A stretch of DNA of 64,000 nt from an uncultured bacterium (GTDB lineage Bacteria > Patescibacteriota > Minisyncoccia > Phycocordibacterales > DATDWN01), in contig CAIOTC010000020.1 of NCBI GenBank assembly GCA_903861205.1, positions 39,976 to 103,975 on the forward strand, read 5' to 3'. Below the pieces are notes generated by a model. It made no database searches. It was not told where the DNA came from and worked only from the letters and a program-made list of their open reading frames with translations. Of the stretch, positions 31,756 through 54,597 are shown one piece after another (within the stretch, counting starts at the first letter, position 1; each line of letters begins with the position of its first letter). A program made the position numbers and the translations under genes.

Positions 31756-34086
31756 ATGCAGACGAAGACGGTTTTTCGGTTCTTTGTCATTGCGTTTTTT
31801 GCGTTTGCCGCCTTGCCCTTGTTTGGGCAGGTGGTGTACGAAGAAATTCAGATGCCAGTCAACTCCCTTGTGGGAAGCGTTGGAGTGGATGACTCGAATA
31901 ACTTCTGGATGTCGGGTGTTCAAAGCTTGAATGGTTCCGGATCCGGCAGATTGATTTTCGAGTTGGATCCAACCAAAACCATGGCTTCTTTTCTGGGATT
32001 TGCCGACGGGTACAATTCAAGGAAGCAAGCTGGGGCGACATACGTTTTCTACAATTCTTTTCCGCCCAAAGGGCCTCAAAATTTGTTCGGACAGAATGTG
32101 GATTCTTTGTCGCTTGTAACAACTCCGACCAGCTGGGTGTACGTTGGCCATTACATGGTGAACGTGTACCAAGCGGTTAACGGAGGCGTGAATCTTGTCT
32201 GTTCGGATTACACAATAGACGGAAATCCGAACCAGAAACCCACAGATCTTGTTGCCGGACCGTTCTCGAATACGGACGGGAGTTATTTTCTGTCTGGATT
32301 TGTGAATGCAACTCCGAAACTTTTCCAGCTCGGGGCACAAGGATCCGGCGGGCAATGCGATCTCAAAACCGTTCTGACGAGCGATCACCAGATCATCCAG
32401 GCCTACAGGCTTGGAACGGACATTTTGGTTGAAGAGTTGGCAACACCGACTCCAAACTCGCTCAATCTTCTGACGGAAATCGCGGTTTCCGCCAAAGGCG
32501 GTCCGCTGACCGTTTTGCTCGGACCCGTAGGGGACAACAATCCGCAGATCTTGACCGGCAGGAGCTCTGTTGACCTTTCGGTCGATCAGAAAACCAAAAC
32601 GGCCGTGATCACATATGCCGACAACACTGGCTTACACGCCATGTTGTGGCCTTCAATGCGCGAGTTTTACTCCAGCGCAAACGATCAGTCGGCGACCAAA
32701 CTGGCAACCGAGATTCGGGGGGTGTATTTTAATCCTCCATACATGATTCTCGGTGGCAACCCTGTCAATATAGGATTCCAGAGTAGCAAGGTTATTTTGG
32801 CGAACACCGATACTGGTGCAACATACCCTGTAATTGACAGCTCGACGGTGATTGACGGACTCAATGCCAAACTGTTTCCGTACAGCGTTTTTGCAGTCAC
32901 ATCAACCGGTTTTGTGGATTTTGTTGTGTATAATTCAAATTATCCAACTGATCCACATATACACACCTTTCGAGCCCAGATCCCTGGTGTCTCCCAATTC
33001 CCACCGACGACAGTCAGCAGCTTCACCGCCGACAACCTGTCGGTCACGGAAGGCGACGCTGTCACACTCGCTTGGAACACGACAAATGCCAACTCGGTCT
33101 CGATCGACAACGGCGTCGGCTCGGTTTCTGTTTCGGGGACGGCGCAAGTTGTTGTCAGCGGGACGACCACGTTCACTTTGACGGCTACTGGCTATGGCGG
33201 ATCTGCCACGGCCACGGTGACTGTCACGGCAACGCCGCGCAAACCGGCCATCAGCAAATTCTCTCTTTCCACGGGCGAAGCAACATCAACCGTGGCCCAG
33301 GGCAGCGTGCTGAGTGTGCTCGGAACGAACATGTGTGGACTGGTGACGGACATCACGTACGAAGTCGAGATCATTGCCACCATCCGACCATTGCCGTACT
33401 CAATCGGCGGTTGCCGGATGAGAATCACCGACGCAAGTGGCAACACCAGCTACCTGCCGATGAAATTCGGCATCACCTTCGCCACATCCACTCCGCCGCA
33501 TCAGTCGCAATCCAACGGGCAGATTCCGTGGAGTCAGACTCCCGGTGTTTACCAGTTGGTTGTCGAAAATCGCAATTGGGCCACCGACGCCTACGTGAGC
33601 GAGACGGATCCCGTTTCGATCACTGTGGTTCCGGTCAACCCTTCGCTCAACCGCGCAAATGACGGCACGAGCGATCCGCCGCTTGACATGACCGACGGAT
33701 CCGGCGCATCTGTCACGCCGAAAAATCCCGCCCAGCCCGGCGGAATGTTCCTTGCAAAGGGAACCGGCTTCGGCCAACCGACTGTGCCTCTTCCCGCCGG
33801 TATGGCGCCAGCAGATATTCACCTCTCCGACTGGGACAACATCCAGTCGCCGGCTGAAATCTGGGCGTATGTTTCGGAGGGCGGCAACTGGAACATGCAC
33901 CAACTGCCGATTCAACTCGCGGTCATGGACCCGAGCGACATCGGCACGCAGATTGTTGTGTTCGCCGTTCCGGACGATGTTAATCCGGACGCCGGCCAGC
34001 AAAACGCTTTCATGTTTTTCAAAATGGCAGACGGGACGACAACCCCGATCAAAGGGTTCCCGCTGTCGCCAAAGGTGGTGAAATGA
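31756..34086 (+). CDS. large secreted protein (776 aa), Gly/Thr/Ser-rich beta-domain protein with an Ig-like domain
   Basis: Signal peptide MQTKTVFRFFVIAFFAFAALPLFGQVV. Ig-like segment PTTVSSFTADNLSVTEGDAVTLAWNTTNANSVSID...TATGYGG. Confidence 0.7.
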   Translation: MQTKTVFRFFVIAFFAFAALPLFGQVVYEEIQMPVNSLVGSVGVDDSNNFWMSGVQSLNGSGSGRLIFELDPTKTMASFLGFADGYNSRKQAGATYVFYNSFPPKGPQNLFGQNVDSLSLVTTPTSWVYVGHYMVNVYQAVNGGVNLVCSDYTIDGNPNQKPTDLVAGPFSNTDGSYFLSGFVNATPKLFQLGAQGSGGQCDLKTVLTSDHQIIQAYRLGTDILVEELATPTPNSLNLLTEIAVSAKGGPLTVLLGPVGDNNPQILTGRSSVDLSVDQKTKTAVITYADNTGLHAMLWPSMREFYSSANDQSATKLATEIRGVYFNPPYMILGGNPVNIGFQSSKVILANTDTGATYPVIDSSTVIDGLNAKLFPYSVFAVTSTGFVDFVVYNSNYPTDPHIHTFRAQIPGVSQFPPTTVSSFTADNLSVTEGDAVTLAWNTTNANSVSIDNGVGSVSVSGTAQVVVSGTTTFTLTATGYGGSATATVTVTATPRKPAISKFSLSTGEATSTVAQGSVLSVLGTNMCGLVTDITYEVEIIATIRPLPYSIGGCRMRITDASGNTSYLPMKFGITFATSTPPHQSQSNGQIPWSQTPGVYQLVVENRNWATDAYVSETDPVSITVVPVNPSLNRANDGTSDPPLDMTDGSGASVTPKNPAQPGGMFLAKGTGFGQPTVPLPAGMAPADIHLSDWDNIQSPAEIWAYVSEGGNWNMHQLPIQLAVMDPSDIGTQIVVFAVPDDVNPDAGQQNAFMFFKMADGTTTPIKGFPLSPKVVK

Positions 34087-34225: not shown

Positions 34226-34885
34226 TTATTTTGAATTTATATATTTAACGAATTCTTTTTCCATTATTTCTATATTACTGCCAAATATTTTTTCAAAATT
34301 TTTGCTGAAATTGTCATAGAAGTAGTTTTTTTCCAAGGTAAATATGAGTTCACGAACTTTTTCAATGGAAAATTCTTTAACTAGAAAACTGACAAACATC
34401 TGAGAAATTTTGTAGGCGTAATAGTTTGAGTTTTCATCCCAACACCTCGGAGTTCCAAGTTTCTTTAAAAATTTTTCCTCAATATATATATATTCATCAG
34501 AAATATTGAATCCAGCGACAAAAGAAGAAAATCCTTCATTTAGCCACTTTGGTATTTTATGTCCACCAGAAAGAATATCTAAGAATACGTGTGAGATTTC
34601 GTGTTTTAATATCGAAAGGAATTCATTTTTTTCGTGAGTGCTTTCTTTTGCCATGCAGTCTGGATGCAAAATATCGATATCACCTGAATAAGATGCATTT
34701 GCAACTTCCCATTCAAGAGTTATTCTTTTTAATTTGTTCTCGAAATCCTTTCTTGATTTATGCACAGTAATGTTTATACTTTCTGGTTTTTTATCAAAAA
34801 ATTTCTCCGCTTCTTGATAAGCAGTAGATGCCATTTTTTCTATTTCATTATAATCTTTACCTTTGTAGACTATATTTATTTTCAT
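34226..34885 (-). CDS. HExxH zinc metallopeptidase (gluzincin-like: HEISH...NEGFSSF), candidate leader peptidase of the adjacent RiPP-like cluster
   Basis: 219 aa with HEISHVF and a downstream NEG glutamate ligand. Very AT-rich. Lies 65 nt downstream of the precursor-peptide gene on the same strand. Confidence 0.6.
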   Translation of the reverse strand: MKINIVYKGKDYNEIEKMASTAYQEAEKFFDKKPESINITVHKSRKDFENKLKRITLEWEVANASYSGDIDILHPDCMAKESTHEKNEFLSILKHEISHVFLDILSGGHKIPKWLNEGFSSFVAGFNISDEYIYIEEKFLKKLGTPRCWDENSNYYAYKISQMFVSFLVKEFSIEKVRELIFTLEKNYFYDNFSKNFEKIFGSNIEIMEKEFVKYINSK

Positions 34886-35120: not shown

Positions 35121-36428
35121 CTATTTAAGGATAACTCCGCTGTTAAAAAGTGTCAATACGACCTCAATAATATCACTGGCGTCTAAACCAGTTTCCTCTG
35201 TAATTTCAGCTGAGGAAAAGGTTCTTTTTTGGACCATAAGACGAACAAGTTGAAAACCATCGTGCGTCAAAAATTGGACACTAGTTCCAACATAGGCGAT
35301 TCCGCCAAAACTTTCCTCTCGCAATCTGGTGAGGGAATTTATTTCAACGCGTTCTTCCAACAAGATTTTTCCAAATTGTTTTTTCCGATTGGGCAACTTC
35401 GCCACTCTTTTTGGGTTGAATATGGGCAAAGACATGTACATATCTTTACCATTATAACTACCGTTTGTTGTTTTTGATGACATACGACAACCACCTTCGC
35501 ATATTGTCGTAGCTGAACAATTTATACACTCTGTCGGAAGCATTGATTCCTCCGACCACGGACTCATATTTGTCCAAATGGCGGAAAAATCTTCTTGAAA
35601 AACGTTACCGAATGATTTGTCGGCATGTATGCATGGCCTGACCATTCCAGTTGAGGAAATGGCGCATGATGTTGTGGCCGCGGAACATATTCTGTTGCCA
35701 AAAAAGGATAAAAAATCATCCTCATCGTTTTCATTAAATAAGCATCTGGCTATGGGTTCCAGCGTGTCGACGCTTATTCTGAAAGTTTGTTCTACCAAAA
35801 GAAGATTTCTCAGCGCAGATTTGCATTCTTCACCACTCAAAACAAAAGGTAAGTTTGACTCATGCGATGGAACCATTGGGGTTGCACAGAAAGTTTTTAC
35901 TCCTAGATTGTTAACAAGTTTGCCTACCTCAAACACTTCACTAAGGTTGAGCTTGGAAACGACCATATTTGTAGCTACCAATATACCCGCTTTAACCAAT
36001 TTTTCTATTCCTTTTAATGTTTGCGGGAATCCACTTTTAGTTCCTGTTATGAAATTGTGCGTTTCTTCTTTCCCGAGTATAGAACATAGAACATGATCAA
36101 GACCTTCATCTTTTAGTTGCTGAGCGGCGTCCGAAGTGACTAAGGACGCGTTGGTGTTTAGCCCAATTTCCATCCCATATTCTTTGGCTTTTCTGAGTGT
36201 CGGAAACAACACACCTGGTCTCAAAAGCGGTTCGCCGCCAGTGAGGGTAATGGCACTAACGCCATATTTTGCCAGAGTATCAATAACTCTCAAAAAATCT
36301 GTGGAGTTCAATTCTTGTTTGTCGCTTTTTGTGTCGTACCTCCAGTAGTTGTAACAATGTCTACATCTAAAATTACAACTCTCGGTCAATTCAAGTTGAA
36401 CATCGACAGGACCGGATAAGCGTTTCAT
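35121..36428 (-). CDS. radical SAM/SPASM-domain peptide-modifying enzyme with a C-terminal PqqD-like (RRE-like) extension
   Basis: CNFRCRHC (Cx3Cx2C), GGEPLL, Cys-rich SPASM region (CSAATTSCAISSTGMVRPC, CINCSATTICEGGC) and a C-terminal tail ...ITEETGLDASDIIEVVLTLFNSGVIL. Confidence 0.85.
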   Translation of the reverse strand: MKRLSGPVDVQLELTESCNFRCRHCYNYWRYDTKSDKQELNSTDFLRVIDTLAKYGVSAITLTGGEPLLRPGVLFPTLRKAKEYGMEIGLNTNASLVTSDAAQQLKDEGLDHVLCSILGKEETHNFITGTKSGFPQTLKGIEKLVKAGILVATNMVVSKLNLSEVFEVGKLVNNLGVKTFCATPMVPSHESNLPFVLSGEECKSALRNLLLVEQTFRISVDTLEPIARCLFNENDEDDFLSFFGNRICSAATTSCAISSTGMVRPCIHADKSFGNVFQEDFSAIWTNMSPWSEESMLPTECINCSATTICEGGCRMSSKTTNGSYNGKDMYMSLPIFNPKRVAKLPNRKKQFGKILLEERVEINSLTRLREESFGGIAYVGTSVQFLTHDGFQLVRLMVQKRTFSSAEITEETGLDASDIIEVVLTLFNSGVILK

Positions 36429-36537: not shown

Positions 36538-36609
36538 GAAAAAACTTATGCACAAAAGTTGTGTGGCGGCTATTGCCACACATTTCCGCAACGTAGTATA
36601 ATTAAAGTT
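36538..36609 (+). promoter_or_regulatory. conserved promoter cassette B: aaaaacttatgcacaaaagttgt ... tttccgcaacgtagTATAATtaaagtt, 7 nt before the ATG
   Basis: About 80% identical to cassette A. The -10 lies 7 nt from the start codon at 36610, implying a leaderless transcript. Confidence 0.6.
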
Positions 36610-38997
36610 ATGGACAGATCATTAAAAGTTTACGCGAAATGTTTTTTTGTTTTTACTTTGCTGTTTGTTGTTTCTTTCGGTTTGTTTGGCCAAGTCGCGC
36701 ATGCTCAGCTTCTCAACCCGCAACCGCCGTCTTGGACTTGGCCACCGTGTTCAACATGGAGTGGAACGAATGGCGGGTCATGCAATTATCCCTATCCTGG
36801 CAGTGGTTGTCAAGGATCCGTCTCCACAGTTTATTGTCCGATTTGTGACAGTTACCAGGGGTACACCAACGATTGTCCTAATCCGGGTGGAAATCTTTGC
36901 AATGACGGATCTGGCGGTGCAAACATATGCCAAAAAGATGGTGGCGGTTGCGGATGCGTCAAAACGTGGTCCGGCAACCAGTGCACTGATCCGGACGACG
37001 CTTGCTACGGCGAAGCCACTTGTTGCAACGGCTCATCTTGCAACAACAATGGCATCTGCGATGCCAACGAAACCACCTCTTCCTGCCCGCAGGGCTGCCA
37101 AGTCGGCCCGCAATTCAGATTTGACGTGAACAACTCACAAACTATAAATTATGGGGGCACCGCCGCTTACCAAATCCACGTCTACAATGATTCCAGCAAA
37201 AATAGTTTGAATTACAACATAACCTATTCCGGTCTGCCTTCATCCGCTTCCATCAGCTGGGGCTGGAGCGGGCAGAGCTACGCTTTGAGTTCGACGGACG
37301 GTGATAATTCCGACACAATCAGTTTGATGACCGTTGGCGGTCCGATCATGCCCGGCACGTACAACCTCACCATTACCGTTACCGGCACAACCAACGGCAT
37401 TTCAGTTCCGCAAACAAAATCTGCCGTTCTCATCGTCAGCCCCGCCAACTTCGCCCAGTGCAACGGTTTGTGGCACAACGCTCCGCTATCCGCCGCCTCG
37501 CCGGTACAGCCGGTCGGTTTGTACACTACTGTCAGTGGAAATCAAAACACCGTCAACTTGGTCTGGACCGGCACGGACAACGCCGTTTACCAACTTGGTT
37601 GCCGATTCTTCGGAGGCTCGTCATGCGCTTGGGACAGCTCAGTTTTCAAAATAGTTCCTAACGCCAACTATTCCGCTCCATTTTGGACAACGACTTCCGC
37701 TCCAAACATTTATCAAGACACCAGTTTCAAAGTGGCTTTTCTCAACTCAGGTGATGGCAAGAGATATTATAATTATATTTATTCGTCTTATGACGGCTTT
37801 TACGTCTGGCTGACACCGGACAATTCCGGCGCCACAGGCTACGGCACGCCAACGAACACCACCGACAGTCAAGGCAAACCGTGGAATTTTCAACGGCTCT
37901 CCGACAACACGGTGCAATACGAATGCGGCGTGCCTCTCACTCCAACCGGTTTCTGGGCCGGAGCCGGCACTTGCGGAACGGGACAAATCAATTTGTCGTG
38001 GAGCGCTTCGTACGGAGCAACAAGCTACACCGTGAAGGACGGAGCCAGGACGGTTTACAGCGGATCGGCTCTTGCCGTTTCCGACACCGGTCTTGTTGCG
38101 GGTTCCAATCACACCTACACGATCACCGCGACAGACGCTTCCGGCACTTCTGCTTCCGGTCCGACAACTCCGGCCACGACGGTCGCGCCAAGCTCATGCA
38201 CTCCGGTTCCGGTGACCACTTTCACCGCCTCGCCGACGTCCGGACCGGCGCCACTTTCCACAACGCTCTCATGGTCGGCCACGAACGGCGCCACTGGTTG
38301 CACGGCATCGTCCAATCCGGTCAACGCCAATTGGAACGGAGCAAAAACTCTGGCGCAATCACCGCAAACCATTTCCGGTTTGGCCGCCGGTTCCTACACA
38401 TTCAGTTTGTATTGCACGAACGCCACAGGTAATTCAACCACTGTTAGTCCCGTTGTCACGGTTGGTCCGGCGCTTCCGACGATCACGTCCTTTGTGGCAA
38501 ATCCACTGACCGGAACTTCGCCGCTATCCACGACTTTGACATGGGCATCATCGGGCGCCACAAGTTGTACCGCAAGCGGAGGATGGAGCGGTTCAAAAGC
38601 CACATCAAATGCAATCGGTGAAGTTGTGAGTGGATTAACTGTTCCAACAACTTTCAATCTGGTTTGCACAAATGCTTCTGGAAATAGTCCCCAATCTCAG
38701 GTTATAGTCACTCCTACAGCACCAAATTACACCCTAACTGTCAGCGTTACGACATCCCAGGGTGGTTATGTCACTGGTGCAGGAATAGATTGTGGTTCAT
38801 CAGGACACCCAACATGCACAGCGACATATCCTCAAGGTACTCCTGTCATTTTGACTCCAACACCTGTCGGCAACTGGAAATTCATCGGCTGGACAGGAGC
38901 GTGTACCGGCTCGGGCGCTTGCTCATTCAATGTGAACAGCAACTTGTCAGTTACCGCGCTATTTGTCCCGCGACCGATTAATTACCAGGAGTTCTAG
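36610..38997 (+). CDS. secreted Cys-rich protein with five tandem Fn3/Ig-like repeats and a C-terminal InlB B-repeat-like domain (795 aa)
   Basis: Signal peptide MDRSLKVYAKCFFVFTLLFVVSFGLFGQVAHA. About 25 Cys in the first 130 mature residues. About 90-aa repeats (..SPTSGPAPLSTTLSWSATNGATGCTAS.. / ..NPLTGTSPLSTTLTWASSGATSCTAS..). C-terminal GYVTGAGIDCG...GNWKFIGWTGACTGSGACSFNV. Start chosen at 36610 rather than the track start 36559. Confidence 0.7.
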   Translation: MDRSLKVYAKCFFVFTLLFVVSFGLFGQVAHAQLLNPQPPSWTWPPCSTWSGTNGGSCNYPYPGSGCQGSVSTVYCPICDSYQGYTNDCPNPGGNLCNDGSGGANICQKDGGGCGCVKTWSGNQCTDPDDACYGEATCCNGSSCNNNGICDANETTSSCPQGCQVGPQFRFDVNNSQTINYGGTAAYQIHVYNDSSKNSLNYNITYSGLPSSASISWGWSGQSYALSSTDGDNSDTISLMTVGGPIMPGTYNLTITVTGTTNGISVPQTKSAVLIVSPANFAQCNGLWHNAPLSAASPVQPVGLYTTVSGNQNTVNLVWTGTDNAVYQLGCRFFGGSSCAWDSSVFKIVPNANYSAPFWTTTSAPNIYQDTSFKVAFLNSGDGKRYYNYIYSSYDGFYVWLTPDNSGATGYGTPTNTTDSQGKPWNFQRLSDNTVQYECGVPLTPTGFWAGAGTCGTGQINLSWSASYGATSYTVKDGARTVYSGSALAVSDTGLVAGSNHTYTITATDASGTSASGPTTPATTVAPSSCTPVPVTTFTASPTSGPAPLSTTLSWSATNGATGCTASSNPVNANWNGAKTLAQSPQTISGLAAGSYTFSLYCTNATGNSTTVSPVVTVGPALPTITSFVANPLTGTSPLSTTLTWASSGATSCTASGGWSGSKATSNAIGEVVSGLTVPTTFNLVCTNASGNSPQSQVIVTPTAPNYTLTVSVTTSQGGYVTGAGIDCGSSGHPTCTATYPQGTPVILTPTPVGNWKFIGWTGACTGSGACSFNVNSNLSVTALFVPRPINYQEF

Positions 38998-39195: not shown

Positions 39196-39726
39196 TTATT
39201 TTGTTGTATCCAAATCTGATTCACGAATGTAATCAATTCTCTGACCATTTATATAGTATGAAGCATTCAATGAATCTTGAATGTAACCATTTGAAAGTGA
39301 AATATAAAAGTATAGATAAGCAATTAAAGATTTATTTCCTTGTTCATCTTGTAAGATTAAATAATTTACCCCTTTAGTTCCACTATCAATAGCAGATAAA
39401 CCATATTGAGCATTATTCAAAGCACCTATAACGGAAAATTTTGTTGAAGTAGAAACTGGTTTATATATAAAACGATTCGGATAATATGTATCAAGACTTT
39501 TATCTGTGACTATTTCTCTCCCTATCGTCTTAAATGTTTTTGTTCCTGCTTGTTGTACACCAATTTGGTAATACATTTGATTATCAAAAACTACTTGAGC
39601 TCCTTCTAAAATTTTAGGAATTGGAATTTGTGTTTCTCTTTCACCCCCGATAATAGTACTTGCAATGAAAAATAATACAAGAATTACTAATATTATACTG
39701 ATATTTTTTTTATTAATTATTTTCAT
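39196..39726 (-). CDS. membrane-anchored hypothetical protein (176 aa), strongly AT-rich
   Basis: N-terminal TM helix ISIILVILVLFFIASTIIGG. Codon usage shifted toward AT relative to its neighbours. Confidence 0.45.
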   Translation of the reverse strand: MKIINKKNISIILVILVLFFIASTIIGGERETQIPIPKILEGAQVVFDNQMYYQIGVQQAGTKTFKTIGREIVTDKSLDTYYPNRFIYKPVSTSTKFSVIGALNNAQYGLSAIDSGTKGVNYLILQDEQGNKSLIAYLYFYISLSNGYIQDSLNASYYINGQRIDYIRESDLDTTK

Positions 39727-39927
39727 CTCCTATATCATACCAGTAAACTTATAAAAATCCAATGTACCGTTGACTTTTTCTAAAAAATGATATAGCTTAT
39801 AATTAGATTCTACACCATAGGTACACACGAAAGTCTACTACCCATGTTGTTTCTGTTCTTTGAAAGAAACAGCGTGGAAAGTGGACTTGGTAGTGTATTG
39901 TATAGGTGAATCTCCAAAAGGAGTGGT

Positions 39928-41997
39928 ATGAAAACCATTCTAAATTTCACGGTAGTTTTTCTGCTTCTGGTTCTGTCCAGTGGCATACTCATCAACAACG
40001 CAAACGCTCAAACGGTTTGTCCGCAAGGAAAGTCCTGCGCTGTGTTCATTTGGGTCAACGGAATTGCAGTAAAAAATTCGGCTGATTGGGATACAACAGT
40101 CAACGACGTTAGAACCAAGTTTTTTAACGCTAATTCCGATATCGACCAAGCTTACATCAAGTTCGATCCTGCCTACAACCAAAGCTTCGGTATGTTAAAG
40201 GACATTTTCGGCCAGTCAATCTTCCAGTGGGACCAGCAGTTCACTGACAGTTTTCTGGCTAACTCTTCGGTCTTGCAAAATAGTTCGGTGAACAATATTT
40301 TGCTGGCATATGCTCTCTGGAACTATTCCTTTGACGCGAAGAGGTTCACAACAGATTTAATCGCGATTGGAGACAAAATTCATTCGTGGCAAAATCTCGG
40401 TTACCGAGTCGTCCTGGTTGGTCACAGTCAGGGTTCGTTTTTAACGAACGAAGCTTACACTGTCAGAATCAGAGAGGCAGTCGCCGACAAAAGCATTGCT
40501 CTGCCAGACGCAAACTTATTGTCAGTTGTAAATATTGCGAGTTCTGCCAATAATGTCGCTGATGGGCGGAACAAATACACCACCCAGTGCAATGACATTA
40601 TCCTGGTTGTTCCAAAAGTACTTCCGGGAAATGTGAACGACCCGACTGCTCCGTGCACTCCATTTTTGATGCCTCCACCCCCCGTCAGTATTTTGGCCGG
40701 AGTCCTTGATGCAATAGCTGCAACAGTGGATATAGCAAAGTTGTGGCACGGATATAACGTACACCAACTTTCGACCTACACGGCCGACAAATCTGCAACA
40801 CAAAAGCAAATCTTCGCGCATTTGGTTGACTCGCTTCCAGATCCGGGTTGTGCAGGTAACGAAAATTGTTATCTCCACGATACATACAGTCCAACCTTGA
40901 ACTACAAGGACAACTGGATTGTGACGAAAAAATCCGGTAACTCGCTTGAACCTTTGCGAGCTTCGGGGTGTTTGACTCTAAGTTCGCTCAGCGGTTTTCC
41001 AACTTTTCTCGACCCGGGGCAAATCACTCTCCGAACTCGCCGAGTTTTTACCGGTTTGTTTTGGGGATCCTTGCGATTTCGAAGTCGAGGAGCGGGAAAG
41101 TCTATCGTCAGTTTCAAAAAAGCGTCGGATGATTCTGTCGCGGCGTCTATTACAGCCGACAGCACTAAAGATTTTGGCGAAAACTGGAGGCAGATGTTCT
41201 TTGGTTGGAAAGACGATAACCTAACGATTTCGTCGTTAGGTCCTCTTCCTGTAAAAACTGCGTTCAATCAAGCAGAGGGTTACTATCTCGAGCTCGATTC
41301 TCAAGGTGACAACACGTTAGAGGTTAAAGATTTGGATGTGTCCAGAGTGAGGAACACGGAATTAAGCGATCCTACTTTGCCACCTCCGGCACCTTCTCCA
41401 CCTACTCCGTCTTCACCCTCACCCCCGCCTTCACCTCCTCCACCACCACCCGTACCTCTCACTGGTTCTTGCTCGCTAAACGGAGGACAAAATCCGGTTA
41501 CAATGCAAGTTAGTGGCACCGCGTATTTCAATGCTTCCTTCTCGGGCGGTACTGGTGCAATTCACTTTTCGTGGACTGGTGCTACTGGAGGTGATGCATC
41601 TAGTGCCTCGCAAGTTTACAACACTTCCGGAACATACACCGCTTCGGTCAAGTTGACCGACTCCGGTTCGCCGCAACAGCAAGTGATAGCAACATGCCCG
41701 CAGGTGACAGTGTCAAATCCCGCTCCACCGCCGCCAGTTGCCTTGTCCTACGTTTGCAGTATTTCACCGCCCACCATCAAATTGGGGTCGAGCGCGTCGT
41801 TTGCAGTTAGTGTTTATGGTGGCTATCCGCCATACACTTTCTACATGCCGGGCGCAGTGTTTTACCGAGCGCCGAACACCCAGATCTCAACCATTCCACC
41901 ACCACTTAGCGTCGGTGTGCAGACCTACTCGGGTTTTGTCCAGGATAGTCAAGGTAAAGTGACATATCCAACCTGCTCCGTCACGGTGACAAATTGA
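39928..41997 (+). CDS. secreted lipase-like alpha/beta hydrolase (GHSQGS) with a Pro-rich linker and a C-terminal beta domain; paralogue A
   Basis: Signal peptide MKTILNFTVVFLLLVLSSGIL. VVLVGHSQGS nucleophile elbow. PPPAPSPPTPSSPSPPPSPPPPPPVP linker. C-terminal domain homologous to that of 48009..50801. Confidence 0.7.
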   Translation: MKTILNFTVVFLLLVLSSGILINNANAQTVCPQGKSCAVFIWVNGIAVKNSADWDTTVNDVRTKFFNANSDIDQAYIKFDPAYNQSFGMLKDIFGQSIFQWDQQFTDSFLANSSVLQNSSVNNILLAYALWNYSFDAKRFTTDLIAIGDKIHSWQNLGYRVVLVGHSQGSFLTNEAYTVRIREAVADKSIALPDANLLSVVNIASSANNVADGRNKYTTQCNDIILVVPKVLPGNVNDPTAPCTPFLMPPPPVSILAGVLDAIAATVDIAKLWHGYNVHQLSTYTADKSATQKQIFAHLVDSLPDPGCAGNENCYLHDTYSPTLNYKDNWIVTKKSGNSLEPLRASGCLTLSSLSGFPTFLDPGQITLRTRRVFTGLFWGSLRFRSRGAGKSIVSFKKASDDSVAASITADSTKDFGENWRQMFFGWKDDNLTISSLGPLPVKTAFNQAEGYYLELDSQGDNTLEVKDLDVSRVRNTELSDPTLPPPAPSPPTPSSPSPPPSPPPPPPVPLTGSCSLNGGQNPVTMQVSGTAYFNASFSGGTGAIHFSWTGATGGDASSASQVYNTSGTYTASVKLTDSGSPQQQVIATCPQVTVSNPAPPPPVALSYVCSISPPTIKLGSSASFAVSVYGGYPPYTFYMPGAVFYRAPNTQISTIPPPLSVGVQTYSGFVQDSQGKVTYPTCSVTVTN

Positions 41998-42026
41998 CGA
42001 CACCTGCTTCGTTTACCAAGTATTTC

Positions 42027-42055
42027 ACCCCTGCGTTTGGCGCGCAGGGGTTTTA
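42027..42055 (+). terminator. rho-independent terminator after paralogue A
   Basis: cccctgcg-tttggcg-cgcagggg followed by ttttaaa. Confidence 0.65.
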
Positions 42056-42106
42056 AATTGTTGATAATTTGCTTTTCACCAAAAAACTTCGTGGTACAAT
42101 TACATC

Positions 42107-45094
42107 ATGAAGTTTTTTCGTCTCGCGATTTTGCCGGCGGTTTTGTTTTCATTTTTCGCTTTTTGCGGCACGGTTTTTGGTGATGTCGTGTATGAACAAC
42201 CGATCATTGGACAGGGGATTAACATCAAAGTTGCCGGCGATTATCACAAAAGTTTTTATATGTATTATGTTGGAGGTATTTCGGAACTTGCCAATCCGCC
42301 TGTCACCTCCGGTTTTATTGTACCTAGAGCATATAACAAAGTCAGAATAAAAAAGATGTTAGGAACATCATGCTCTAATATAACTGCCGGCACCAATCTC
42401 GACAGTTTTAACTACGGCCACGAGGTGGGTGAGGACTACTGCGAGTTTTATATCTATGATGGTGTCGGAAACGCCGGTCAAACTAATTATTTATATTTTT
42501 TTGGCAACGGCCAGGATTTGGTTTTTGATGGCAGTAGCGCCAACGCTGGAGTAACAGTCGACGGATATAATGATCACAGCATTCCGGGCGGTTACGCTTT
42601 CCAATTTTGCGAAAGCGTGTGCGACAGAGATTTTATTCTCGGTCCGGTCACCGATCCGGCAAATTATCCGACCAGAATTTTTGCTTTTGACGTATCAACT
42701 AGCACGAAAACAGCTTCGGTGCACGAATATCTAAATCCGAACGATCTCGGCGCGAAAATAAATTTTAACATCACCGATTCGGCCGGACAATTTTTCACTT
42801 CAAGTGTGACAGCAACCACGACCGGCGAATTTTATTACACCTGGAACTTTCCGGAATTTCCGGAAAACAAAACCGGTTTTGACGATTACACTTTTTACAC
42901 TGACATCGCCACTTCGACGGTCATAAAAAGCAAAAGCGTCAAAATGCATCTCGAAGTACCGATTATCGGCCGACCGGGTTACGGCAATTCAGGCTTCGAT
43001 TCTTCTCAACAGATCGGTAGCTCATTCAATCATTTGATTCAAACACTCGGCACAAATCTTTTCGGAAGTTTAAAGCGCATTGATATACAATCAAGCAATC
43101 CAAGTGCTATTTATTATGGTTCGCAAACTTGGTTTTCTTTGTACGAGTGCGATGATGACGCATACGGAAAATTCTTTTTTGACGGTTCAAATTGTAAATT
43201 TGTAAATCAGTTTATCTCTGACACGATGGGGAAGCTTGATAAAAGTGTTGAGAGTTTTTATCCTGATCTAACCAATCCGGTTATTTTGAATCCGACTAAA
43301 TATTACTATTTTGTCGTGCAAGGGAATAATCAGTTCAATTCTTTGCCTATTTACTACGGAAGCTCGGCGGACAATGTGGACGGCGCCTGCTACCAATATT
43401 CTCTCGGGCAAGAAGCCAAAGTCACTCCCTGCGCTACGGTTGCCGATTTGTATTTCCGTCTGTATGGAATAACCAAAGCACCACCCACACCGACAATTGA
43501 TCCAGTCATCATCATTCCGGGTATTATGGGAAGCGCTTATAAGAACGGCAAACTTATTATTGATCCGATTTTGCATACGTACGACGACCTGATTGATACT
43601 TTGAAAGCGAATGGATACGAAGAAGGCAAAGATCTTTTCACTTTTGCGTACGAATGGCGGAACTCAAACGTTGAAAGCGCCAATTTACTGAAAGATAAAA
43701 TCAGCGAGGTGAAGGAAATTTGCAAATGTTCGAAAGTCGATTTGGTCGCGCACTCGATGGGCGGGTTGGTGGCTCGCGAATATATTCAGTCCGGCCAATA
43801 CAGGCATGATGTTGACCAAGTTATCTTTTTGGGAACGCCACATAAGGGGTCGCCGTCTGATTATTTGAGATGGGAAGCAGGGGAGTTTGAATCAGGCACT
43901 TTTAACATTTTAACAAAGAAATTTTTCCAAGTAGAAGCGTTGGAACATTTCTATACAAGCTTGTTCGATTACATTCAAAAATATCCAATAGCGTCAGTCC
44001 AAAATCTGTTACCGGTTTTTGATTATTTGAAAGATAAAAATACCGGAGTTTTGAGAACATATCCAAACAATTATCCAAAAAATGTTTTTCTGGAAGCGTT
44101 GGATCTCAATACCGGTTTGCAAAAACTTCTGAATTCAGGAGTGAGAATCACAAACATTGTTGGTAATGCTGGAGCAACATCAACAATAGAAAAAATAAGA
44201 GTGACAGCAAGCTCGAGCCCACTTTGGTTGGATGGCAAGCCGGATGGATTTGACGGACAAACGGCTGACAGGGGATTGGAAATGGGTGCCGGAGATGGAA
44301 CGGTCACGATAAATGGCGCAACTTTGGACAGTTTGGTTGCAAATCAGGTAGTATCCGGTGAGCACCAAAAACTTCCAACCATGGCTGAGGCAAAAATTTA
44401 TAATATTCTGACAGGTAAAACGGCTCAAACGACTTTTGATCGCGATCATGGGGTTGATGTGAAGGTTTTGCTTTTGCAACTGCTTTCGCCGGTAGATTTT
44501 GTTATTACGGATCCGAATGGCCGAAGAATTGGCAAAAATTTTGCCACAGGCGAGGAATACAATGAAATCCCCGGAGCGTTTTACTCAGGGTATCAGACAG
44601 CCGAAGAATATATTTCAATTCCAAATCCTTTGGACGGAGATTATAAAATACAGTTGCAGGGAACGGGAAGCGGAAAATACACAGTTGATACAAGTTATGT
44701 GGGCGACACAACTTCCAACACCGCGGAAATTGTAGGCACAACAGTTCCGAATCAAATAAATAATCTTGATTTGACATTGAACAACGTTCACCCAGAATCT
44801 ATTTCTGTTGACCCGGATATAATTAGCGATATAAACAAATGTTTTGATTCGGGATGGATAAAAGATAAAAAAATAAAGGACGCATTGATAAAGGAAGTGC
44901 AATTTATTGTAAAATTTGAGAAAAAATTTGATATAATAAAACAGAAGAAGGTGGAAAAAATTGAAAAGAAAATAGACAAAATATTGGCAAAATTGGTAAA
45001 GATAGAATTGGATGGACTGTTAAAGAAAAAAATCATAAACCAACAAGCTTACAATTTATTAAAAAGCGATCTAGATTGGTTAATTAACAATTAA
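42107..45094 (+). CDS. large secreted PGAP1/LCAT-like alpha/beta hydrolase (HSMGG) with a C-terminal PPC-like domain and a Lys-rich coiled-coil tail (995 aa)
   Basis: Signal peptide ...FCGTVFGDVVYEQ. Motifs PGIMGS, LVAHSMGGLVAREY, GTPHKGSP. C-terminal ITDPNGRRIG...GDYKIQLQG. K-rich tail. Confidence 0.7.
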   Translation: MKFFRLAILPAVLFSFFAFCGTVFGDVVYEQPIIGQGINIKVAGDYHKSFYMYYVGGISELANPPVTSGFIVPRAYNKVRIKKMLGTSCSNITAGTNLDSFNYGHEVGEDYCEFYIYDGVGNAGQTNYLYFFGNGQDLVFDGSSANAGVTVDGYNDHSIPGGYAFQFCESVCDRDFILGPVTDPANYPTRIFAFDVSTSTKTASVHEYLNPNDLGAKINFNITDSAGQFFTSSVTATTTGEFYYTWNFPEFPENKTGFDDYTFYTDIATSTVIKSKSVKMHLEVPIIGRPGYGNSGFDSSQQIGSSFNHLIQTLGTNLFGSLKRIDIQSSNPSAIYYGSQTWFSLYECDDDAYGKFFFDGSNCKFVNQFISDTMGKLDKSVESFYPDLTNPVILNPTKYYYFVVQGNNQFNSLPIYYGSSADNVDGACYQYSLGQEAKVTPCATVADLYFRLYGITKAPPTPTIDPVIIIPGIMGSAYKNGKLIIDPILHTYDDLIDTLKANGYEEGKDLFTFAYEWRNSNVESANLLKDKISEVKEICKCSKVDLVAHSMGGLVAREYIQSGQYRHDVDQVIFLGTPHKGSPSDYLRWEAGEFESGTFNILTKKFFQVEALEHFYTSLFDYIQKYPIASVQNLLPVFDYLKDKNTGVLRTYPNNYPKNVFLEALDLNTGLQKLLNSGVRITNIVGNAGATSTIEKIRVTASSSPLWLDGKPDGFDGQTADRGLEMGAGDGTVTINGATLDSLVANQVVSGEHQKLPTMAEAKIYNILTGKTAQTTFDRDHGVDVKVLLLQLLSPVDFVITDPNGRRIGKNFATGEEYNEIPGAFYSGYQTAEEYISIPNPLDGDYKIQLQGTGSGKYTVDTSYVGDTTSNTAEIVGTTVPNQINNLDLTLNNVHPESISVDPDIISDINKCFDSGWIKDKKIKDALIKEVQFIVKFEKKFDIIKQKKVEKIEKKIDKILAKLVKIELDGLLKKKIINQQAYNLLKSDLDWLINN

Positions 45095-45098
45095 TTTT

Positions 45099-45470
45099 AT
45101 GAATTATTTTATAAAAAATGTTTTATTGCTGGTTGCAGTTTTAATTTTGAGTTATTTGACTGCTCCATATTTCGGCAGTTTATACGACAAATTTTCTCCA
45201 CAATATAACAATTCTTTTTTAGGGACAGGAAAAGATTTGTCAATATTCATCGCCGGTCTCCCTTTTGCCTACGTATTTTTTGTGCCATTTTTGTTTGAAT
45301 TGTTCGGTTTTGGCGCAAAAAATAAGTGGATAATCTGGCTTTTAATTCCAGCTGTATTGTTATGGATTTCTGTTGACCTGTATTATATTTACCTTCCAAT
45401 CATCCTATGCCTCATCGCCCTCCTCCTCGCCAAGCTCATAAATTTTTCATTTAAAAAATTAAGAGTTTAA
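45099..45470 (+). CDS. integral membrane protein (123 aa)
   Basis: Four predicted TM helices. 4 nt downstream of the preceding gene. Confidence 0.5.
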   Translation: MNYFIKNVLLLVAVLILSYLTAPYFGSLYDKFSPQYNNSFLGTGKDLSIFIAGLPFAYVFFVPFLFELFGFGAKNKWIIWLLIPAVLLWISVDLYYIYLPIILCLIALLLAKLINFSFKKLRV

Positions 45471-45508
45471 ATTTTCTGTGTTATACTGAACGGGTAAAAA
45501 ATGTCTAT

Positions 45509-46189
45509 ATGTCTGAATACCACGACAATGTTTTTTTGCAAATTTCATATTTGTTAATAAGACTAACTCTCGGAACACTTGTCCGACTAATTTGGGTCAA
45601 AAGGGTGGAGGGGATTGAGAATGTTCCAAAAACCGGCGCGGTCATCGTGGCTTTTAACCATCAAAGTTTTTTTGATTTTTTGTGTTTTATTTCAATCTCG
45701 CCGAGAAAAATCCATTTTCTGGCGGCTGAAAAATTTTTTACAAATCCGTTTTGGTATCCGCTGGTAAAATTGACTGGGCAAATAAAAGTTGACAGAAAAA
45801 TGCACGGCAAGGAAGATTTGCACGAGACAATTTTGAAGCATTTGGAAAACGGAAAAATGATTGGGATTTTTCCGGAGGGTACGCGTTCTCCGCACGAAAA
45901 AGAGATGTTACAAGCTTTCACTGGTGTAGCAAAATATGCGGTACGCGGCGAAGTCCCTGTACTTCCGGTCGGCATCAAAGGAACGTATGATATAATGGCC
46001 AAACATGACAAACGGCCGAAATTCAAAAAAATTGTTACAATACATATCGGTAAACCGATGCATTTCACTGAATACCATCACTCAAAATTAAACGAGAAAA
46101 CCTTCCGCGTTCTAACCGACAAAATCATGCTGGAAATCGCTGGCCTGTCTGGCAAGAATTATCCAAGTATTGAAAATTTATATAATTAA
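45509..46189 (+). CDS. 1-acyl-sn-glycerol-3-phosphate acyltransferase-like (PlsC family)
   Basis: Acyltransferase motifs NHQSFFD (HX4D) and FPEGTRS. Confidence 0.75.
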   Translation: MSEYHDNVFLQISYLLIRLTLGTLVRLIWVKRVEGIENVPKTGAVIVAFNHQSFFDFLCFISISPRKIHFLAAEKFFTNPFWYPLVKLTGQIKVDRKMHGKEDLHETILKHLENGKMIGIFPEGTRSPHEKEMLQAFTGVAKYAVRGEVPVLPVGIKGTYDIMAKHDKRPKFKKIVTIHIGKPMHFTEYHHSKLNEKTFRVLTDKIMLEIAGLSGKNYPSIENLYN

Positions 46190-46194
46190 AATTT

Positions 46195-46695
46195 ATGCAA
46201 ATAAAATCAACCATAAAAAACAAAGCGGGAAAGGATTTTGATGTTATCTATTACGAAGGATTGGATCCAAATCAAAATCTGGAAGGAAAAATTTTACAGG
46301 CCGTTCACGGGTTTTGTTTTTATGGCGATAAACTGGTTGTGGTATATGCAAAAGATAAAGGGTATTGGACATTACCAGGTGGAGGAATAGAACCCGGTGA
46401 AACTTACGAAGAAGCTACTGTTCGAGAAATACAAGAAGAATCCAATATGAAAGTTTTGCATCAGGAACTTATCGGTTTTCAAGATATTTACGAAGATGGA
46501 AAAATAATTAGACAAACTCGTTCATTTTGTATTGTTGAACCATACGGTGATTTTGTTTCTGATCCAGATGGAGATATAACAGAAATAAAACTAATTGATC
46601 CAAAAGATTACAAACAATACTTTGACTGGGGTGAGGTGGGTGAGAGAATAATAAAGAGAGCGTTGGAGTTGAAAGAAAAATTACTATTAAAATAA
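46195..46695 (+). CDS. NUDIX hydrolase
   Basis: Nudix box GGGIEPGETYEEATVREIQEESN. Confidence 0.7.
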   Translation: MQIKSTIKNKAGKDFDVIYYEGLDPNQNLEGKILQAVHGFCFYGDKLVVVYAKDKGYWTLPGGGIEPGETYEEATVREIQEESNMKVLHQELIGFQDIYEDGKIIRQTRSFCIVEPYGDFVSDPDGDITEIKLIDPKDYKQYFDWGEVGERIIKRALELKEKLLLK

Positions 46696-46706
46696 AACAG
46701 GTTATT

Positions 46707-47852
46707 ATGTCAACTGTTATTTTCAAAGAAAATGGTAAAACACTCAAACAAACTTTTGAGAAAATTTTTAGTGATTTAAATGTTGAGATAAAAGGTAAAA
46801 TTTTTATAAAACCAAATTTTTCAGGCCGGCCACCGCTAATTCCAGGTGAGAATACAAATCCGGAATTTTTGAAAGAACTGGTGGAATTTTTAATTGGAAT
46901 GGGGGCGGAAGAAGTTCTAATTGGGCACGGCGCCCTTTTGGGAACTTTTGATAAACAATTTCCATTCAACCAAATAATTGAAGGGGGTGGTTTTTCTTTT
47001 TTGCAAAAAATACCAAAAGTAAAGTTGATTGATTTGGACAAGGAACCGAAAAATTTGGTCGAATCAAAAAGTTTTAAATTTTTAGTTCCGCAAATTTTGA
47101 AAGGGGTTGATTTTTACATCAATCTGGCGGTATTAAAAATGCACATGGAAACAACTGTTTCGTTGTCGATAAAAAATCAAATGGGGCTCGTGGCACCGGG
47201 GGATAGAATAAACATGCACCACACGAAGTTGGAAGAATCAATAGCTTTGCTTGCCACGCTGATAAAACCGGATTTAAATATAATCGACGGAATAGTTGCG
47301 ATGGAAGGCAATGGTCCACACCATGGCAAGGGTAAAAAATTAAATTTAATTTTTGCCGGTGTTGATATGGTGGAATTAGATTCAGTTGTTTGCAATATAG
47401 TTGGAATTGATTTCAAACAAGTCAAACATATTTGTTTTGCGGAAAGTTTTGGAGTTGGAAAATTTCCAACAGAAGATGAGTTGAAAAAATACAAGGAATT
47501 TAAAGTCAGTAGTTTTTTGCTGGCGTCAAAATTTGAAAAATTCGGCAATATCAACGCTTGGCCAACCACAGCTTGCTCGCGATGTATTACCGCCATAAAC
47601 GAATCCGGCAAACTGATGAAAAAACATCCGATCAAACATTTCAGGATCATAACCAAAATTTTCATCGGTAAAAACAAATATAATGTGGTCATCGGCAAAG
47701 CTGAAGGCTTGAATCTGCCAAAAAATGAAAAAATAATTTGCATCGGTCAATGTACCAAAGAATTCGCCGACAAAAATTGTCTAAAATGTCTGAACAAATG
47801 TCCACCAACCGTAGCGGAAACTTTGGAGTATCTTAAAAAAGAAGTGGACTAA
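46707..47852 (+). CDS. DUF362-like protein with a C-terminal Cys cluster
   Basis: FIKPNFSGRPP...GHGALLG pattern of DUF362. C-terminal CSRC...CIGQC...CLKCLNKCP. Confidence 0.55.
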   Translation: MSTVIFKENGKTLKQTFEKIFSDLNVEIKGKIFIKPNFSGRPPLIPGENTNPEFLKELVEFLIGMGAEEVLIGHGALLGTFDKQFPFNQIIEGGGFSFLQKIPKVKLIDLDKEPKNLVESKSFKFLVPQILKGVDFYINLAVLKMHMETTVSLSIKNQMGLVAPGDRINMHHTKLEESIALLATLIKPDLNIIDGIVAMEGNGPHHGKGKKLNLIFAGVDMVELDSVVCNIVGIDFKQVKHICFAESFGVGKFPTEDELKKYKEFKVSSFLLASKFEKFGNINAWPTTACSRCITAINESGKLMKKHPIKHFRIITKIFIGKNKYNVVIGKAEGLNLPKNEKIICIGQCTKEFADKNCLKCLNKCPPTVAETLEYLKKEVD

Positions 47853-47861
47853 ATATTTTAA

Positions 47862-47925
47862 AATTAAAAGCCCCGCGTCGAGGTATTTCCAGATATGTTT
47901 GGAAATACACAAGACGCGGGGGAAG
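47862..47925. terminator. bidirectional terminator: long GC stem enclosing a second hairpin, between the convergent DUF362 gene and paralogue B
   Basis: gccccgcgtcg ... cgacgcgggg with an inner hairpin tatttccagatatgtttggaaata. The T-run is on the minus-strand side. Confidence 0.6.
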
Positions 47926-48008
47926 TTTGGAACGAGCAAGTGACTCGTTTGAACCACTTGCAAAATAACTATTGGTGGCGTGAGCGGGTGGCATGTGAGC
48001 TATGCTAG

Positions 48009-50801: not shown

Positions 50802-50982
50802 ACCACCCCTTTTTGAGATTCACCTATGGTAATACACTACCAACTTGATCAATCGTCACCGCTCTTTTATTTCAAAGAACAACAACGATGGACCATATTG
50901 ATGTGACCCATGGTGTAGATCTGATTTAAGACTGTACTATTTTGGAGAGAAAGTCAATGTTGACAATATTGATTTATATATT

Positions 50983-51843
50983 TTAATATTGACCCTGAAC
51001 AATGGGCTGGGTGCAATCTTCCGAACTAAGATAAATCGACGGGCCAGCGAAAGGTAGAGCCAGCCTATTATGTTCCTCGTATATTTTCTTTCTTTCCGGT
51101 GTATTTTTAACCAAATTATGTAAAAACTGTCCATTACCATCAGATGGATTCAGGCCAAATTCTGTATATGTATAACAATTGTCTAAAGCAAATTCTTTCA
51201 GCAATAATTTTACATAATAATCATGATCTCCATTAGTCAATAAGACCTCTTGCGTCACTTTCATTTCTGCTCTCAATATTCGTCGTATTAGATCGTTTCC
51301 CGGATACATAAACACAATCTCTCTCTGCAAATCATCTCTAACACCGTCATGGTCAGAGTCGATGCCGGCGAGTGTCACTTTTCCAGCTTCACCTGGGTCT
51401 GGCGGAAGTGTAACTGAAATGTCGGTTACTGCAAAGCGAACGATTTTGGATGTTTTCACTCCATTGAAATACAAAACAAAAGAAACAGTTTGCGGTTTAG
51501 AGAGCCATTCTGTCGGAGCTACAAGAGTGCCAGAAAAAGTTCCGTCAGCATTTTTTGAAAGTTGAACTTGCTCGGACGGAATTGTTGTTGTATCAATAGT
51601 TTTCAAATAAGCAGATGTGATTGTTGTTGAATTTTCCGGTGTTAGAATGAACGAAAGTGTGACAGGTGTTAGCGGTTGTGCATTTGTTGTTTGAACTAAG
51701 GCGGTTTCCGGAGAGACAACTATTGCTACCGGCGGATTTACGCGCGATTCCCTTTGGTGCAAAATATATGAGAAAACAGCGTAGGAAATGGCAAGGATAA
51801 TTAAGATAGCACCGACAACCAAAACAAATTTCTTAGATTTCAT
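50983..51843 (-). CDS. membrane-anchored extracytoplasmic hypothetical protein (286 aa)
   Basis: N-terminal TM helix KFVLVVGAILIILAISYAVF. No recognisable catalytic motif. Confidence 0.5.
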   Translation of the reverse strand: MKSKKFVLVVGAILIILAISYAVFSYILHQRESRVNPPVAIVVSPETALVQTTNAQPLTPVTLSFILTPENSTTITSAYLKTIDTTTIPSEQVQLSKNADGTFSGTLVAPTEWLSKPQTVSFVLYFNGVKTSKIVRFAVTDISVTLPPDPGEAGKVTLAGIDSDHDGVRDDLQREIVFMYPGNDLIRRILRAEMKVTQEVLLTNGDHDYYVKLLLKEFALDNCYTYTEFGLNPSDGNGQFLHNLVKNTPERKKIYEEHNRLALPFAGPSIYLSSEDCTQPIVQGQY

Positions 51844-52843: not shown

Positions 52844-52864
52844 ACAAGTATTTATAATAAATAT

Positions 52865-53566: not shown

Positions 53567-53586
53567 AATCATACTGAATAAATTTT

Positions 53587-54543: not shown

Positions 54544-54597
54544 AATTTGTTCACAATTCCAATATGTTTTTATCATTTGACTTGATATAATGTAGAC

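Follow-up and report, generated by a model that had tools for sequence, protein, structure and literature searches.

A probable expression and secretion module common to two divergent surface-protein genes of a Patescibacteria genome

The window analysed here, a 64-kb stretch (64,000 nucleotides, nt) of contig CAIOTC010000020.1 from an uncultured bacterium of the Patescibacteria, carries two genes for secreted proteins, A and B, which resemble each other most around their start codons. The region shared by A and B is probably a conserved expression module of about 190 nt for secreted multi-domain serine-hydrolase-like surface proteins of Paceibacteria-type bacteria of the candidate phyla radiation (CPR), together with a short tract of conversion between the two genes. 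The reading is carried by the conservation of the leader across genomes, by the covariation and strand asymmetry of its long hairpin, and by the mosaic structure of gene A. All positions given without a locus name refer to the window.

Results

Genes A and B and their shared 5' region

Gene A, 39928-41997, + strand: 689 amino acids (aa); signal peptide, GHSQG serine-hydrolase-like domain, second beta-rich domain, Pro-rich linker and two C-terminal repeats
Gene B, 48009-50801, - strand: 930 aa; N-terminal hydrolase-like domain as in A, two CBM96/DNRLRE domains flanking a Bact_surface_Ig-like domain, and C-terminal repeats common to A

The two genes are convergent. Their first 63 coding nt (A, 39928-39990, + strand; B, 50801-50739, - strand) were identical at 60 of 63 positions, all three differences being synonymous, and the same 21 residues, MKTILNFTVVFLLLVLSSGIL, form the N-terminus of both proteins. 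A gap-free inverted repeat of 91 nt with 95% identity was detected at 39902-39992 and 50737-50827, its arms lying 10.7 kb apart. The longest perfect run common to A and B was 29 nt. The other inverted repeats between the genes were 71-74% identical over 50-179 nt, apart from one 29-nt repeat at 86%. The 62-nt pattern occurred only twice in the window and never in shuffles. When gaps were allowed, the homology extended over about 250 nt at 79.5% identity (39750-39989 against 50980-50737).

The proteins diverge beyond the signal peptide. The full-length sequences of A and B were 46% identical in amino acids, and the mature N-terminal domains 44% in amino acids and 51% in nucleotides. The identity of third codon positions at identical residues of the mature domain was 0.48, which is read as close to saturation. 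A recent duplication is ruled out by the near-saturated synonymous sites and by the mature-domain tree, which separates A from B; for the same reasons A and B appear to be ancient paralogues, each with its own copy of the module.

An earlier note, made from the sequence of the window, had described homologous stretches of about 150 nt upstream of both genes, a start of 63 coding nt about 95% identical with the same protein beginning, about 50% identity in the remainder of the proteins, and a Pro-rich linker in A where B has repeated domains and an Ig-like domain. These descriptions agree with the values above, and the identity of the upstream and signal region (91 nt at 95%) indeed exceeds that of the other inverted repeats between the genes (71-74%, and 86% for the 29-nt one). 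The intervening segment, which had been given as 8 kb, measures 6.0 kb from stop to stop (41998-48008).

Towards the 3' end, too, the two genes are unevenly similar. Their C-terminal parts (41554-41998 and 48008-48452), which hold the GSC..NG...CPQVTVS repeats, were 71-72% identical in nucleotides, well above the catalytic domains (51%). Gene B contains in addition an internal direct repeat (48611-48811 and 49373-49573; spacing 762 nt, 71-73% identity) that corresponds to its two CBM96/DNRLRE domains.

Elements of the module

The elements recognised around the start codons of A and B are as follows (SD, Shine-Dalgarno sequence; a slash marks the predicted cleavage site).

Promoter-like element of A, 39770-39798, + strand: TTGACT at 39770-39775, 17-nt spacer, TAGCTT at 39793-39798; ends about 13 nt before the hairpin
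Promoter-like element of B, 50929-50957, - strand: TTGACT at 50957-50952, 17-nt spacer, CAGTCT at 50934-50929
Hairpin H1 of A, 39812-39908, + strand: imperfect, about 97 nt; at its base ACACCAU pairs with AUAGGUG
Hairpin H1 of B, 50821-50916, - strand: the same hairpin; inner stem diverged, pairing kept through compensatory changes
Ribosome-binding region of A, 39909-39941, + strand: AAUCUC(C) at 39909-39915 (possible anti-SD, invariant), SD GGAG at 39920-39923, and helix H2
Helix H2 of A, + strand: 39920-39927, GGAGUGGU, pairs with 39934-39941, ACCAUUCU (codons 3-5), leaving AUGAAA in the loop
Signal-peptide coding region of A, 39928-40008, + strand: Sec-type, translation MKTILNFTVVFLLLVLSSGILINNANA/Q
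Hairpin H3 of A, 39962-39985, + strand: in codons 12-20, inside the signal-peptide codons
AAUCUC, SD, H2 and signal-peptide region of B, 50733-50820, - strand: translation MKTILNFTVVFLLLVLSSGILMA/Q; H3 at 50744-50767

H1 probably forms the 5' end of the mRNA and starts a few nt past the transcription start, because the promoter-like element ends about 13 nt before the stem. The signal peptides end with ...NNANA/Q in A and ...ILMA/Q in B, cleavage being predicted from the conserved A-x-A/Q, and neither contains a lipobox Cys.

Other functions of the leader were considered and rejected. A match to an intrinsic terminator or attenuator in the leader of B (50911-50888) was a local alternative fold lacking conservation, and the conserved stem is not followed by a U-tract. 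An upstream open reading frame (ORF) in the hairpin was dismissed too: the ATG within CAUGUUGUUU gives frames that vary in length and phase between copies, and it is AUA in the homologue P0009.

Conservation of the leader in other genomes

The same leader was found upstream of the homologues P0006 (locus L005), P0008 (L006), P0009 (L008), P0002 (L015), P0023 (L016) and P0022 (L018), called P6, P8, P9, P2, P23 and P22 below. The scores of the leader copies with the covariance model R1 were 70-157 bits; those of A and B were 156.9 and 123.6 bits, and R1 detected only these two copies in the window. As the same promoter, hairpin and MKTIL start head homologues in five other assemblies, the A/B upstream homology outside the short conversion tract described below is that of a family-wide conserved leader and not a local oddity.

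TTGACT was invariant and lay 41-43 nt before ACACCAT in A, B, P6, P8 and P9; it was present also in P2, P23 and P22. As read from the upstream sequences, it was followed after 16-17 nt by a -10-like TAnnnT. Further conserved blocks were ACACCAUrrGU...AUAGGUG, AAUCUC, AAGGAG and AUGAAAACCAUUCU. The signal peptides of the homologues were alike, for example MKTILKTLAVFLLLVLSSGILVNNLNAQ in P6 and MKTILKLLVMLWLLVLSSG in P8. The leader also locates true start codons. In the case of P2 (GCA_054605875.1, JBTSDG010000005.1), the GTG deposited as the start, at 2227, lies 120 nt 3' of the true ATG at 2107, up to which the ORF is open in frame; this ATG restores MKTILNFVVVFLLLVLSSG and has the conserved leader directly upstream.

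The leader was present in every gene examined whose product begins with M-K-T/A-I-L. It was not found upstream of P0010, P0003 and P0014, the N-termini of which are not MKTIL. P0010 keeps the motif LLLV-SSG at the protein level, with other codons and no leader.

The leader and signal-peptide region was better conserved than the proteins that follow it. Between different clades of the six genes A, B, P2, P6, P8 and P9, the mature domains were 36-48% identical, with third positions at 0.32-0.48; the hairpins of the same genes were 58-84% and the SD and signal-peptide segments 63-94% identical. Within the signal peptide, A agreed with P6 at 15 of 17 third positions and with P8 at 11 of 13 (85-88%), compared with about 41% in the mature domain. 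In a neighbor-joining tree of the mature domain, A was sister to P0014 (98% bootstrap), which comes from another sample and lacks the module. B was placed elsewhere, and the leader-bearing genes were scattered over deep, poorly resolved branches.

Several observations were made beside this set. An orphan leader (R1, 70 bits) with intact hairpin and SD lies just 3' of P8 (L006:4052-4188). It is followed by GTG AAA ATG TGA, a 17-nt tandem duplication and a terminator, and has no TTGACT promoter. The orphan probably represents what is left of a tandem paralogue after deletion; a small RNA standing on its own is also conceivable. Two further matches to the leader pattern, in a marine contig and a Muribaculaceae genome, were judged to be chance, their spacing or host being wrong. 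A second pattern and a protein-based scan of viral contigs returned nothing. The gene of P0003, which has no hairpin leader, occupies 10001-12187 of L013 (Logan SRR31244250, 36 kb) in the opposite orientation to its neighbours. L013 looks phage-like, encoding a GP3_package terminase small subunit, YopX, PDDEXK_1 and PG_binding_1, and P0003 may be a phage-borne copy of the hydrolase.

Probable gene conversion between A and B

Putative conversion tract in A, 39889-39991, + strand: -39 to +64 relative to the ATG; counterpart in B about 50738-50841

The differences between A and B were distributed unequally, with 32 of 98 positions differing in the hairpin and 5 of 89 in the SD and signal-peptide segment (p=2e-6). 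The corresponding numbers of differences were 16 and 12 for A and P6 (p=0.68), 17 and 14 for A and P2 (not significant), and 36 and 16 for B and P2. The hairpin of B differed at 32 positions from that of A and at 36-37 from those of P2 and P6. Site by site, A was P6-like through the hairpin, B-like from -39 to +64, and P6-like again from +66 (INNANAQ compared with VNNLNAQ). The maximum chi-square window, -39 to +64, contained 15 B-like and 6 P6-like sites, with 4 and 39 outside it, a statistic that none of 5000 permutations attained. Within the B-like stretch lie a 1-nt insertion at -12, common to A and B, and codons 6-9, NFTV; in P2, which has the domain architecture of B, these codons read NFVV.

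Gene A is thus a mosaic, and the pattern indicates that a tract of about 100 nt was homogenised by short gene conversion, the divergence being about 5% in the tract and about 30% in the adjoining hairpin. The conversion probably proceeded from B into A. The proposal of the earlier note that the regulatory and secretion-signal module had undergone conversion can be retained for this tract; the remaining upstream homology belongs to the family-wide leader.

Purifying selection alone was considered as another explanation, in which very strong constraint on the SD and signal peptide, perhaps tuned to the ribosome or secretion machinery of this genome, would by itself account for the near-identity of A and B from -39 to +64, and no DNA was exchanged. 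The segment is the most conserved one in most cross-genome pairs (63-87% identity), H2 and H3 lie in it and constrain its nucleotides, and LLLV-SSG is kept in P0010 in spite of other codons and the missing leader. However, constraint does not account for A matching B here and P6 on both flanks, nor for the 1-nt insertion, which lies in an unpaired spacer. It also leaves unexplained the eight states shared in codons 6-9, which are outside H2 and H3 and vary freely among the other genomes, and no such fall in divergence is seen between A and P6 or between A and P2. Selection without exchange is therefore regarded as unlikely.

Predicted RNA structure of the leader

Every leader folded into one long hairpin with z-scores of -2.3 to -7.2; that of A scored -5.4 over 196 nt and -7.2 over 136 nt. 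Owing to G-U pairs, the sense strand folded better than the antisense strand by 10-21 kcal/mol in 5 of 6 leaders (A, -44.7 vs -29.7 kcal/mol; B, -40.6 vs -19.9 kcal/mol), which argues for RNA rather than a DNA palindrome. RNAalifold recovered H1, H2 (SD paired with codons 3-5, AUG in the loop) and H3 (codons 12-20). The consensus was one extended hairpin with no multi-helix junction.

In the cmsearch alignment of nine copies, which was fitted to the model and favours structure somewhat, 94% of the cells were paired and 15 pairs had changed on both sides, compared with 8.0±1.6 in shuffles (reached in 0 of 500). At most 4 such pairs were obtained with slid controls. H3 was counted on an ungapped MAFFT alignment not fitted to structure: it was 100% paired in 7 sequences, and 3 of its 8 pairs had changed on both sides (6 of 500 shuffles). 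In P9 and P23 the amino acids encoded in H3 change from SSG to FSN and the pairing is kept.

In the case of H2, 88-97% of the cells were paired, and the changes were one-sided and pair-preserving, for example ACC to GCC in P22. The helix was predicted in A, B, P2, P6 and P9 and is consistent with the alignment, though not proven. The alternative pairing of the SD, CUC(C):GGAG, was present in all copies.

No family in Rfam 15 was matched, either at gathering thresholds or in a permissive E-value mode, where only sub-threshold microRNA-hairpin noise appeared.

The upstream hairpin might instead act as DNA, being a palindromic operator, a cruciform or attC-like site, or a miniature inverted-repeat (MITE) or repetitive extragenic palindromic (REP) element inserted before both genes. 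It is indeed a long imperfect inverted repeat with the invariant outer arms ACACCAT ... ATAGGTG, and its antisense strand gives a weak R1 match of 32.6 bits. The folding is nevertheless strand-asymmetric, the G-U pairs being C-A mismatches on the other strand, and the position of the hairpin between promoter and SD is fixed within 1-3 nt in every intact copy. The compensatory changes run through the whole stem of about 40 bp, far beyond the length of a protein operator, and neither GTTRRRY-type core sites nor an integrase were found. A mobile element or dispersed repeat was rejected, since no copies occur elsewhere in the window or in about 140 kb of the other loci searched. A DNA-level role is accordingly held to be very doubtful.

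Suggested inversion of the intervening segment

The earlier note had also presented A and B as candidates for recombination-mediated inversion or variation of surface lipases. In its strong form, the inverted repeat would be the substrate of programmed or frequent inversion of the 10.7-kb segment, giving phase or antigenic variation as in the Mycoplasma vsp/vpma/vsa families. Members of the vsp and vpma families, even from different species, agree closely in their 5' untranslated regions (UTRs) and signal-peptide coding regions but lack significant homology in the mature parts, and the conserved regions are the site of inversion (PMC2268961). The present locus shares with these systems the conserved 5' UTR and signal-peptide region, and the members can lie inverted there also; the 91-nt repeat with its 29-nt perfect run does stand at the 5' ends of two surface-protein genes.

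The vsp/vpma/vsa systems, however, need an adjacent site-specific recombinase (Xer1 and similar) and one promoter moved between genes, and the A/B locus has neither. No integrase, resolvase, invertase or tyrosine or serine recombinase was found by Pfam scans of 20 ORFs spanning 29.5-57 kb. A and B each carry TTGACT, a -10-like hexamer after a spacer of 17 nt, and a complete leader; an inversion would therefore switch neither gene and would merely exchange one 5' end for an equivalent one. At the other loci examined, one intact gene follows the module, and thus no partner repeat is needed. The signal peptides of A and B are of the signal peptidase I (SPase-I) type, unlike the lipoprotein signals of the Mycoplasma proteins. 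Four independently assembled metagenome contigs from three ENA samples (L001-L004, consensus assemblies) were 100% identical to the window and collinear with it, no alternative orientation having been assembled. Programmed inversion is thus regarded as very improbable, and the suggestion has no support; a rare RecA-mediated inversion through the 29-nt perfect run is conceivable and would likewise only exchange equivalent 5' ends.

The same assemblies break into contigs of 3.9-5.5 kb around A and B (L001-L004, aligned with 39384-45108 and 47747-51669), and one of them, L003, has its first base at 39811, where the hairpin region begins. The breaks point to problems of assembly, or to differences between strains, close to the shared cassette.

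Discussion

Proposed function of the module

The module would consist of a sigma-70-like promoter (TTGACT-17-TAnnnT), the imperfect H1 of about 97 nt a few nt past the putative transcription start, an SD GGAG able to pair with codons 3-5 (ACC AUU CU) or with the invariant upstream AUCUC, and a Sec signal-peptide coding region containing the small hairpin H3. The pairing of the SD with codons 3-5 would explain the fixed MKTIL. The control is envisaged as post-transcriptional: the 5'-terminal H1 would shield the mRNA against decay that depends on the 5' end, the helix occluding SD and AUG would gate the initiation of translation, and H3 may tune early elongation. A trans-acting factor or a physical cue is possibly involved.

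Besides the fitting of the nine-copy alignment mentioned above, several points weigh against the proposed module. The scan for consensus promoters showed no enrichment in the region (30 found, 27.7 expected), the promoters of CPR bacteria are uncharacterised, and both the start of transcription and the placing of the hairpin at the 5' end are derived from the consensus promoter. H2 lacks a double compensatory change and is not the minimum-energy fold in P8 or P23, and a single long hairpin points to no ligand or factor. The nine leader copies come from six organisms, and some are closely related. The breadth of the family is poorly sampled: in the JGI metagenome and GTDB genome contigs, the pattern ACACCATRRGT-N(65-95)-ATAGGTG-N(1-2)-ATCTC identified only the known contig of P8 and the two chance matches mentioned above. 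As regards the conversion tract, 8 B-like sites are clustered at +18 to +26 and could stem from a single event, and the divergence of the B hairpin could be due in part to faster evolution rather than recombination.

A more far-reaching version of the conserved module can be formulated, which is speculative and at present improbable. The module would then represent a kind of cis-regulatory RNA not described before and confined to Paceibacteria-type CPR bacteria. It would gate translation and secretion of a lipid hydrolase attacking the host envelope and would act in concert with the membrane-anchored partner protein, for example on host contact or according to physiological state; it would also be a portable expression and secretion cassette that passes between paralogues by short-tract conversion. 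If true, it would provide one of the earliest tangible points of entry into post-transcriptional regulation and lipid acquisition in CPR bacteria.

Relation to known systems and significance

The leader is a new RNA motif of a familiar kind. In the leaders of Escherichia coli ompA and Bacillus subtilis aprE and in RNA thermometers, a stem-loop lies near the mRNA 5' end of a gene for an exported protein, or a helix with G-U pairs sequesters the SD, as would also hold for the leader described here. The present hairpin differs from ompA- and aprE-type leaders in being much longer (about 97 nt) and in covarying across CPR genomes. It is also coupled to constrained early codons (MKTIL) and to a hairpin in the signal-peptide codons, and it has no match in Rfam.

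To our knowledge, Patescibacteria (CPR) cannot make their own lipids. Three features of the locus bear on this point: a family of secreted serine-hydrolase-like surface proteins, an uncharacterised membrane partner regularly encoded beside them, and a conserved, covarying mRNA leader without a counterpart in Rfam. The leader lends itself to tests as a candidate for post-transcriptional control in these bacteria, and it pins down true start codons for annotation, as in P2. The mosaic gene A offers a clean, small example of short-tract conversion that homogenises an expression and secretion module between old paralogues.

Divergent surface-protein paralogues that share a promoter/operator and the coding sequence of the leader peptide are described for the erp genes of Borrelia burgdorferi (OspE/F-related, upstream homology box; PMC10016077). 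As with erp, divergent mature domains here follow a common module of promoter, 5' UTR and signal peptide, and a tract of recombination can be recognised. In contrast, the Erp proteins are lipoproteins, their genes lie on cp32 prophage plasmids, and the upstream DNA conserved among them serves as an operator bound by protein, whereas A and B have SPase-I-type signals, lie on a probably chromosomal contig of about 232 kb, and carry upstream a covarying, strand-specific RNA hairpin. Moreover, unlike in erp, the conservation spans distinct genomes in which the mature domains are near saturation. The resemblance to erp would be one of how the system works and not of membership or sequence homology, the latter not being expected.

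Enzyme domain, partner gene and surroundings

No Pfam or NCBIfam match was obtained with the N-terminal domain of A and B. In 11 sequences G165-H166-S167 were invariant and Q168-G169 nearly so; D212, D223 and H279 were invariant too, giving Ser...Asp...His in the order of an alpha/beta-hydrolase triad. The AlphaFold2 model (predicted local distance difference test, pLDDT, 66) contains the strand-GHSQG-helix arrangement. The best Foldseek matches were weak, namely the cutinase 4psc (E=0.012), Legionella PlaB and a DDHD phospholipase domain, none at E<=0.001. The designation as lipases, used in the earlier note, is therefore plausible but unproven: the GxSxG motif and the invariant Ser, Asp and His speak for it, and the missing family matches and weak fold matches do not. 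An exhaustive HMMER search returned 2035 representatives at E<=1e-3 and only 34 at E<=1e-30; a word-indexed protein search, dominated by words of low complexity, gave 3 matches. Homologues of A are few and are annotated as Minisyncoccota or Paceibacterota (Patescibacteria/CPR).

Partner gene, 50983-51843, - strand: 286 aa, N-terminal membrane anchor and conserved C-terminal domain of about 150 aa; just upstream of the B promoter on the same strand
Partner copies in other loci: L005:916-1560; L006:219-860; L008:3070-3930 and 4106-4786; L009:258-857; L014:2-277; L015:158-958 and 1040-1906

The partner gene adjoins B only, gene A having no such neighbour, and because of this B appears to occupy the ancestral syntenic position. 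A homologue of the partner was seen beside the hydrolase gene at almost all loci. The copies of L005, L006, L008 (two copies), L009 and L015 (two copies) had BLASTP identities of 48-61% to that in the window; a fragment of 91 aa in L014 was 34% identical to it. Among the full-length copies, the C-terminal domain was 48-71% identical. The partner protein had no match in Pfam, NCBIfam or PDB and may be a foldase, an anchor or a regulator.

The exact protein A is encoded on a contig of 231,850 bp, where the locus is flanked by housekeeping-type genes and is probably chromosomal. The gene next to A (42107-45094) encodes an LCAT/PGAP1-type alpha/beta hydrolase. The G+C content was 0.49-0.55 in the regions of the large secreted-protein genes (32001-34000, 40001-42000 and 48001-50000) and 0.33-0.37 in the neighbouring housekeeping-type genes (44001-48000 and 52001-56000). 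The ORF at 31756-34086 (776 aa) had no Pfam match. A radical SAM/SPASM enzyme (35121-36428, - strand) adjoins a Peptidase_MA-like protein (34226-34885, - strand); the two could form a peptide-maturation pair, and they lie just upstream of an 812-aa protein with an InlB B-repeat-like domain (36559-38997).

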